64,000 nucleotides of DNA, from NCBI RefSeq assembly GCF_003334315.1, contig NZ_QOWR01000006.1, one strand, 5' to 3'. The notes beneath the pieces are model-generated. The model was not told the origin of the DNA. It saw only the letters and a list, made by a program, of their open reading frames with translations, and ran no database searches. Of this stretch, positions 63,680-64,000 are shown piece after piece. How positions within the stretch are numbered: position 1 is the first letter of the stretch; each line of letters opens with the position of its first letter. Source of the DNA: Escherichia coli (GTDB lineage Bacteria; Pseudomonadota; Gammaproteobacteria; Enterobacterales; Enterobacteriaceae). A program made the translations under genes and the position numbers.

Positions 63680-63823
63680 ATGTCTAATCAGTTTGGTGAT
63701 ACACGTATCGATGACGACCTGACGCTGCTTAGTGAAACACTGGAAGAGGTGCTCCGCTCCTCTGGCGATCCCGCCGATCAGAAATATGTTGAGCTGGGTG
63801 ATGCTGCCAACTTACTGATTTAG
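63680..63823 (+). pseudogene. elaB: elaB truncated by IS1 insertion
   Basis: ATG at 63680 encodes the remembered ElaB N-terminus through ...DQKYVEL (39 codons), then runs into the IS1 inverted repeat and stops at TAG 63821-63823; C-terminal two-thirds including the membrane anchor is displaced. Confidence 0.8.
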
Positions 63824-64000
63824 TGTATGATGGTGTTTTTGAGGTGCTCCAGTGGCTTCTGTTTCTATCAGCTGTCCCTCCTGTTCAGCTACTGACGGGG
63901 TGGTGCGTAACGGCAAAAGCACTGCCGGACATCAGCGCTATCTCTGCTCTCACTGCCGTAAAACATGGCAACTGCAGTTCACTTACACCGCTTCTCAACC
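63797..64000 (+). mobile_element. IS1 insertion sequence, left end (partial; continues past window)
   Basis: From 63797 the sequence matches the IS1 left terminal inverted repeat and insA 5' region as I remember them (ggtgatgctgccaacttactgatttagtgtatgatggtg...), with about one mismatch over 204 bp. Confidence 0.9.
63852..64000 (+). CDS. insA: IS1 InsA (transposase N-terminal protein / repressor), partial
   Basis: GTG start at 63852; translation [49 protein letters not shown] with zinc-finger-like Cys pairs; cut by window end. Confidence 0.85.

Follow-up and report, generated by a model that had tools for sequence, protein, structure and literature searches.

IS1 disrupts the stress-associated gene elaB after codon 39 in a phylogroup-A-like Escherichia coli strain

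We analysed a 64,000-nucleotide stretch of E. coli DNA (hereafter, the window) and confirmed that the small gene elaB is disrupted near the end of this stretch by an IS1 element, and that the disruption is real, rare, and strain-specific. The event is of an already known kind: both it and the element that caused it are textbook cases, and it involves no new mechanism. We propose that an IS1 copy, essentially IS1A, transposed between codons 39 and 40 of elaB in a phylogroup-A-like E. coli, with its left end facing the elaB start. Translation from the intact elaB start now continues for 8 codons into the IS1 inverted repeat before reaching a stop, yielding a 47-residue peptide, and, on this proposal, IS1 nucleotides 205-768, a second GTTGAGCTG, the elaB 3' part, and menF would lie beyond the window.

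The elaB reading frame runs into the left end of IS1

From smrB/yfcO through nuo to elaB, the window runs collinear with K-12 (99.7% identity); it shares 99.9% identity with a group of other, phylogroup-A-like E. coli isolates and keeps the usual gene order rbn, elaA, elaB. These identities, and the lack of any other IS in 63.8 kb, make Shigella an unlikely source, even though it is rich in IS1 and not represented in the E. coli collection searched. The elaB ATG lies at position 63680, and the 5' remnant of the gene, which spans 63680-63796 on the plus strand and comprises codons 1-39 (MSNQFGDTRIDDDLTLLSETLEEVLRSSGDPADQKYVEL, ...DQKYVEL), matched K-12 elaB at 117 of 117 nucleotides in a base-by-base alignment. 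Across the 1,689-nt rbn-elaA-elaB' stretch, identity to a K-12 MG1655 record was likewise 100%. The gene that is cut is therefore elaB, by both nucleotide identity and rbn-elaA-elaB synteny. Position 63796 is the last base common to the window and K-12 elaB, and the element begins at 63797; downstream of 63796, K-12 reads AAAGCGCGTGC..., whereas the window reads GGTGATGCTGCCAACTTACTGAT..., and the left side of the junction is spelled GTTGAGCTG abutting GGTGATGCT. The program-made list of open reading frames contains a 47-codon fusion at 63680-63823 on the plus strand, in which ElaB residues 1-39 are joined to 8 residues (GDAANLLI) from the IS1 left end. Its product is 47 aa long (MSNQ...YVELGDAANLLI), with a TAG stop at 63821-63823.

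The intruding element occupies 63797-64000 on the plus strand, corresponds to nucleotides 1-204 of a presumed 768-bp IS1 clipped by the window end, and carries insA in the same direction as elaB. It is identical to K-12 IS1A at 203 of 204 positions, and the sole difference (C>T at IS1 nucleotide 127) is synonymous, falling in InsA Thr24. The 23-bp left inverted repeat (IRL; GGTGATGCTGCCAACTTACTGAT = GGTRATGMYKCCAACTTAYTGAT) lies at 63797-63819 on the plus strand, where it matches exactly at 23 of 23 positions. This was the one IRL match in the 64-kb window (expected, 0.00 over 100 shuffles), and no other IS end was found in the 63.8 kb of the window that were scanned. The 5' part of insA, with a GTG start, 49 codons, and the zinc-finger region, follows at 63852-64000 on the same strand until it is clipped by the window end, and the N-terminal zinc-binding domain of InsA (NCBIfam NF050000, IS1/IS1595) scored 42.8 bits against a cut-off of 28. 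Nearly the same sequence is widespread: an IS1 copy of E. coli strain H2 matched query positions 2-212, and with them the full 204 IS1 bases, at 100% identity, many further IS1 copies were 99.1% identical, and matches of 99-100% occurred in 4,960 of 5,426 complete E. coli genomes.

Compared with IS1A and IS1E of K-12 (IS1 family, 768 bp), the window copy therefore looks alike in its first 204 nucleotides, in its 23-bp IRL, in the position of a PIS1-like promoter, and in an insA start with the zinc-finger region. It differs in the synonymous change at nucleotide 127 and in its chromosomal location, in a comparison that covers nucleotides 1-204, the 564 that would follow (A6C frameshift site, insB with its DDE motif, and IRR) lying beyond position 64000. 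Together, these findings bear out the preliminary description of this DNA, which had read a clean ElaB N-terminus up to DQKYVEL running straight into the IS1 left inverted repeat, had reported the 47-codon fusion ORF ending in TAG inside IS1, and had named the element as IS1, an assignment on which the IRL, the identity to IS1A, and the InsA zinc-finger domain all agree. Alignment to an intact elaB, which it had put forward as a check, places the break after codon 39. It had also noted that the right end of IS1 and its target duplication fall outside the window, and the 64,000 nucleotides indeed hold only IS1 nucleotides 1-204.

Several further features of the window concern its lineage. The nuoN-elaD interval (59141-60673) is remodelled relative to K-12: yfbN, yfbO, and yfbP (~2.6 kb) are absent, ~1.56 kb of yfbK is missing, yfbL is reduced to a remnant made up of a 116-aa ORF (59789-60139) and a further stretch whose identity to K-12 is only 80%, and yfbM is kept at 59160-59663 on the minus strand. 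The same arrangement was found in two Logan contigs (from SRR3951468_146 and ERR14841426), and the best RefSeq matches, which cover the nuoN-elaD stretch at 99.9% with ~26 extra bases, probably share it, so that the remodelling looks like a lineage variant and not one private to this strain. Over window positions 39000-63788, the best RefSeq matches (e.g., NZ_CM176588.1) were 99.9% identical and, at 24,815 bases, a net ~26 bases longer than the 24,789 of the window. In the 59-kb alignment to K-12, a single gap was seen, and 59,141 window bases took up 59,167 columns. Positions 62100-63788 were 100% identical to the MG1655 record NZ_CP025268.1, and the match to a second MG1655 record, NZ_CP032667.1, and to many other genomes was one mismatch lower (3114 vs 3120 bits, 99.9%); these two MG1655 records may differ by one base here.

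Simple insertion is the probable origin of the junction

We consider it probable that the junction reflects a simple insertion of IS1 into elaB, in which case the elaB 3' part and menF would lie on the far side of the element. IS1 produces target duplications of 8 or 9 bp (PMC12428005), and GTTGAGCTG at 63788-63796 is a putative left copy of such a duplication, taken as 9 bp long. For 9 bp, the right junction is predicted to read ...AAGTTGGAGTCATTACC / GTTGAGCTG / AAAGCGCGTGC..., or, as a longer search string, AAACACTATCAATAAGTTGGAGTCATTACC / GTTGAGCTG / AAAGCGCGTGCAG. More generally, a simple insertion predicts that the far end would consist of GTTGAGCTG (or TTGAGCTG) and then AAAGCGCGTGCAGAAAAAGCG, and the predicted order past the element is ...AAGTTGGAGTCATTACC, followed by GTTGAGCTG or TTGAGCTG, then AAAGCGCGTGCAGAAAAAGCGCTGGATGATGTG... 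and the rest of elaB.

An alternative to simple insertion, which we regard as unlikely, is that IS1 here bounds a rearrangement mediated by the element itself, for instance deletion of adjacent DNA, inversion between two IS1 copies, or formation of a composite IS1-flanked transposon. IS1 promotes deletion of neighboring DNA and is also a substrate for recombination, which counts in favor of this alternative, whereas most IS copies in genomes are simple insertions, which counts against it. The role of insertion sequences in large-scale rearrangements is the subject of one article (PMC11708052). The left junction alone is visible in the window, and a search of the rest of the 64 kb for elaB 3' or menF sequence found none, both of which are compatible with a rearrangement. 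On the other hand, loss of menF-menE would remove menaquinone synthesis, which would be costly.

Look-ups of right-junction gene products also bear on this question. The 52-aa C-terminal ElaB ORF (MKKRV...) that a simple insertion with a 9-bp duplication would leave behind is short, has a poor start, and was not on record for SRR3951468, and ten candidate right-junction products representing 7-, 8-, 10-, and 11-bp duplications were absent from the protein collection. These failed look-ups would fit a rearrangement, but they are also expected under a 9-bp duplication, in which an in-frame TAA contributed by the IS1 right end rules out a novel ORF, and they therefore carry little weight. Nine places that did hold a 52-aa C-terminal ORF proved to be frameshifted elaB genes, mostly on low-quality or short contigs, and had no IS1 junction. 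A further look-up aimed at the sibling contig used the MenF allele, which occurred in 58,632 blocks and was too common to single it out. If a rearrangement had taken place, IS1 would be followed by DNA other than the elaB 3' part, and the men genes, menF or others further on, may have been lost or moved.

Transcription across the junction and possible effects on neighboring genes

A consensus scan of the junction region returned two promoter-like sites, against an expectation of 1.2 +/- 1.1 from shuffled sequence. The first is a putative inward site (CTGCCA-16-TATGAT, 9/12) at 63804-63831 on the plus strand that overlaps the IRL and whose position fits the weak IS1 promoter PIS1, which is described as partially overlapping the IRL (PMC12428005). 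The second is a putative outward hybrid at 63783-63810 on the minus strand (9/12), with a -35 of TTGGCA in IS1, a 16-bp spacer, and a -10 of CATATT in elaB.

Transcription into the element was considered separately. IS1 lies 117 nt inside elaB, co-directional with it and behind the intact elaB promoter, and the stop of the fusion ORF falls 28 nt before the insA start. Since this promoter is controlled by RpoS/OxyR, readthrough into insA/insAB' is possible when elaB is induced in stationary phase or by oxidative stress, and it could couple IS1 transcription, and perhaps transposition or its repression, to stress, a scenario that we hold to be doubtful. The effect on IS1 activity could go either way. 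Machida et al. in 1983 reportedly found that readthrough represses IS1 cointegration. For flanking context, a stimulating effect on transposase transcription has been reported (PMC12428005).

The preliminary description had also suggested that the outward-reading IS1 end could alter the expression of neighbors, and this suggestion found no support above chance: it comes down to the single 9/12 hybrid site, in a region where the number of promoter-like sites is at chance level, and transcription from there would run antisense through the elaB stub and elaA and not into a downstream gene. We treat the site as a likely chance match. In K-12, menF begins 78 nt past elaB, and because only a weak terminator-like hairpin with a 5-bp stem lies between the two genes, polarity of IS1 on menF is conceivable. 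The broader idea that the insertion was selected or is regulatory, either by altering neighbors through the outward hybrid promoter or by lowering menF through polarity, can draw on that site, which does span the junction, on the weak hairpin before menF, and on the ability of IS1 to create fusion promoters (PMC12428005). We judge it very unlikely, given the chance-level count and the antisense orientation, as well as the rarity of the allele, of which the fusion product was found on two Logan contigs and the junction in none of 5,426 complete genomes, with no sign of selected spread. A dependence of menF on the elaB promoter likewise found no evidence in the literature.

The junction is genuine, and the allele is rare

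The 47-aa fusion product is recorded on two Logan contigs. One of these, SRR3951468_146, matches window positions 53680-63824 at 100% identity (10,145 nt). It extends across the junction and breaks off after 28 nt of IS1, as a k=31 assembly is expected to do on entering a multi-copy repeat. Because this short-read contig spans 63796/63797, reads must cross the junction. IS1 is multi-copy and a classic spot for misassembly, and the window stops inside the element, yet it is highly improbable that the junction is an artefact (a chimeric join at the repeat, or a collapsed or misplaced IS1) of a genome with an intact elaB, since a de Bruijn contig built from public reads holds the junction, the fusion product occurs on two contigs, and elaB gives way to IS1 precisely at base 1 of the inverted repeat, as expected for transposition and unlike a random chimera.

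A second public dataset shows the site without IS1. Logan ERR14841426, which was reached via the ElaD allele of the window, shows 3 mismatches in 13,014 positions relative to window 50783-63796, carries an intact elaB followed by menF, and aligns with the window up to position 63796 and no further. Judged from this alignment, ERR14841426 is a near-isogenic empty site, so that the insertion is recent within the lineage.

We searched for the same junction more widely and found it in 0 of 5,426 complete RefSeq E. coli genomes, nor did it occur in the GTDB species representatives or the JGI metagenome contigs, so that none of these collections offered a long sequence extending to the right end of this IS1. 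In the complete genomes, elaB was contiguous in 5,422 and missing from 4. The 5,422 genomes had a median of one elaB place each, with two places in one genome only, which argues against a second intact copy. In the literature searched, no report linked IS1 with insertion in elaB, and a search for the run accession gave nothing relevant. Because none of the 5,426 genomes has the junction and 5,422 carry an uninterrupted elaB, we conclude that the allele is rare and strain-specific, and together with the near-isogenic relative that retains an intact gene, this upholds the earlier claim of a strain-specific event.

A cluster of 39-aa 'partial ElaB' entries had suggested that codon 39 might be a hotspot. 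On inspection, the cluster consisted of two K40* alleles and contigs that simply run out in wild-type sequence (…CTGA, …CTGAA), and clusters of 29, 33, 35, and 37 aa were equally or more populated, so the hotspot was rejected. The two nonsense alleles (AAA>TAA at codon 40) occur in Logan ERR12423092 and SRR5666562, at contig positions 3118-3120 in each. These two sequences are ~3% divergent from one another, and each is 3-4% divergent from the window. Codon 40 (lysine) immediately follows the point at which IS1 interrupts elaB in the window, and the K40* allele was found in 0 of the 5,426 complete genomes.

Insertion sequences were also seen close to the locus in two other genomes. In the rbn-elaA region, one of NZ_CP116976.1 and NZ_CP084055.1 carries an IS903B-family element, and for the other an IS1B-family element is listed between rbn and elaA. 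As both carry an IS nearby, IS insertions do occur around the locus yet spare elaB in the complete-genome set.

The truncated product lacks the C-terminal half of ElaB

ElaB is a C-tail-anchored inner-membrane protein regulated by RpoS/OxyR, and its deletion leads to weaker protection from oxidative stress and lower fitness after prolonged incubation (PMC6389858). Members of the YqjD/ElaB/YgaM family inactivate ribosomes via their N-terminus at the tunnel exit, and YqjD without its transmembrane segment neither dimerizes nor inactivates ribosomes, with some binding left (bioRxiv 10.1101/2024.08.16.608256).

The product encoded in the window loses 62 of the 101 ElaB residues (40-101), the C-terminal membrane anchor among them. 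The glycine-rich transmembrane tail (…GIGVGAAVGLVLGLLLARR) is absent from the fusion ORF, and so is the C-terminal half to which the Pfam anchor domain DUF883_C maps in split or intact ElaB. The anchor loss anticipated in the preliminary description was thus borne out at the level of the ORF. Against the NCBIfam ElaB equivalog NF007709, intact ElaB (101 aa) scored 206.9 bits, and the 47-aa product reached 69.6 bits, matching profile positions 1-43 of 101 only. Since it fails the cut-off of 139, this elaB is classed as a pseudogene and not as a functional family member. In relation to K-12 ElaB (b2266; DUF883, stress and ribosome hibernation), there is full identity across codons 1-39 and the region upstream, and synteny is preserved, whereas residues 40-101 are here replaced by 8 IS1-encoded residues and there is no transmembrane tail.

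Because the anchor is lost, and the anchor of the paralogue YqjD is needed for dimerization and ribosome inactivation, the allele is expected to be null and the 47-residue soluble remnant to be non-functional. The window allele resembles the engineered delta-TM YqjD and delta-elaB mutants in that all of them lack the C-terminal anchor or the whole protein. Unlike delta-TM YqjD, it is a natural allele, known here from its sequence, in which the central helix is gone as well and not the TM segment alone. Loss of ElaB would be predicted to lower oxidative-stress tolerance and long-term fitness, an effect that may be partly buffered by the paralogues YqjD and YgaM.

The mechanism, in which an insertion sequence interrupts a small chromosomal gene, is the same as in other natural IS knockouts, such as those of mgrB in Klebsiella pneumoniae. 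Insertional knockout of mgrB in that species reportedly confers colistin resistance. Those knockouts thus give a selectable phenotype, whereas no selective benefit of elaB loss is evident. The finding has little significance beyond strain annotation and use as a lineage marker, for which the junction is clean, since none of the 5,426 complete genomes has it. An elaB-negative annotation is due for the isolate and for at least one sequenced sibling, a status that could matter to users of the strain in work on oxidative or heat stress, persistence, and ribosome hibernation. Altogether, elaB is contiguous in all but 4 of the 5,426 complete genomes (5,422), as fits a small gene under purifying selection, and natural null alleles such as the IS1-cut elaB and K40* represent rare natural experiments.
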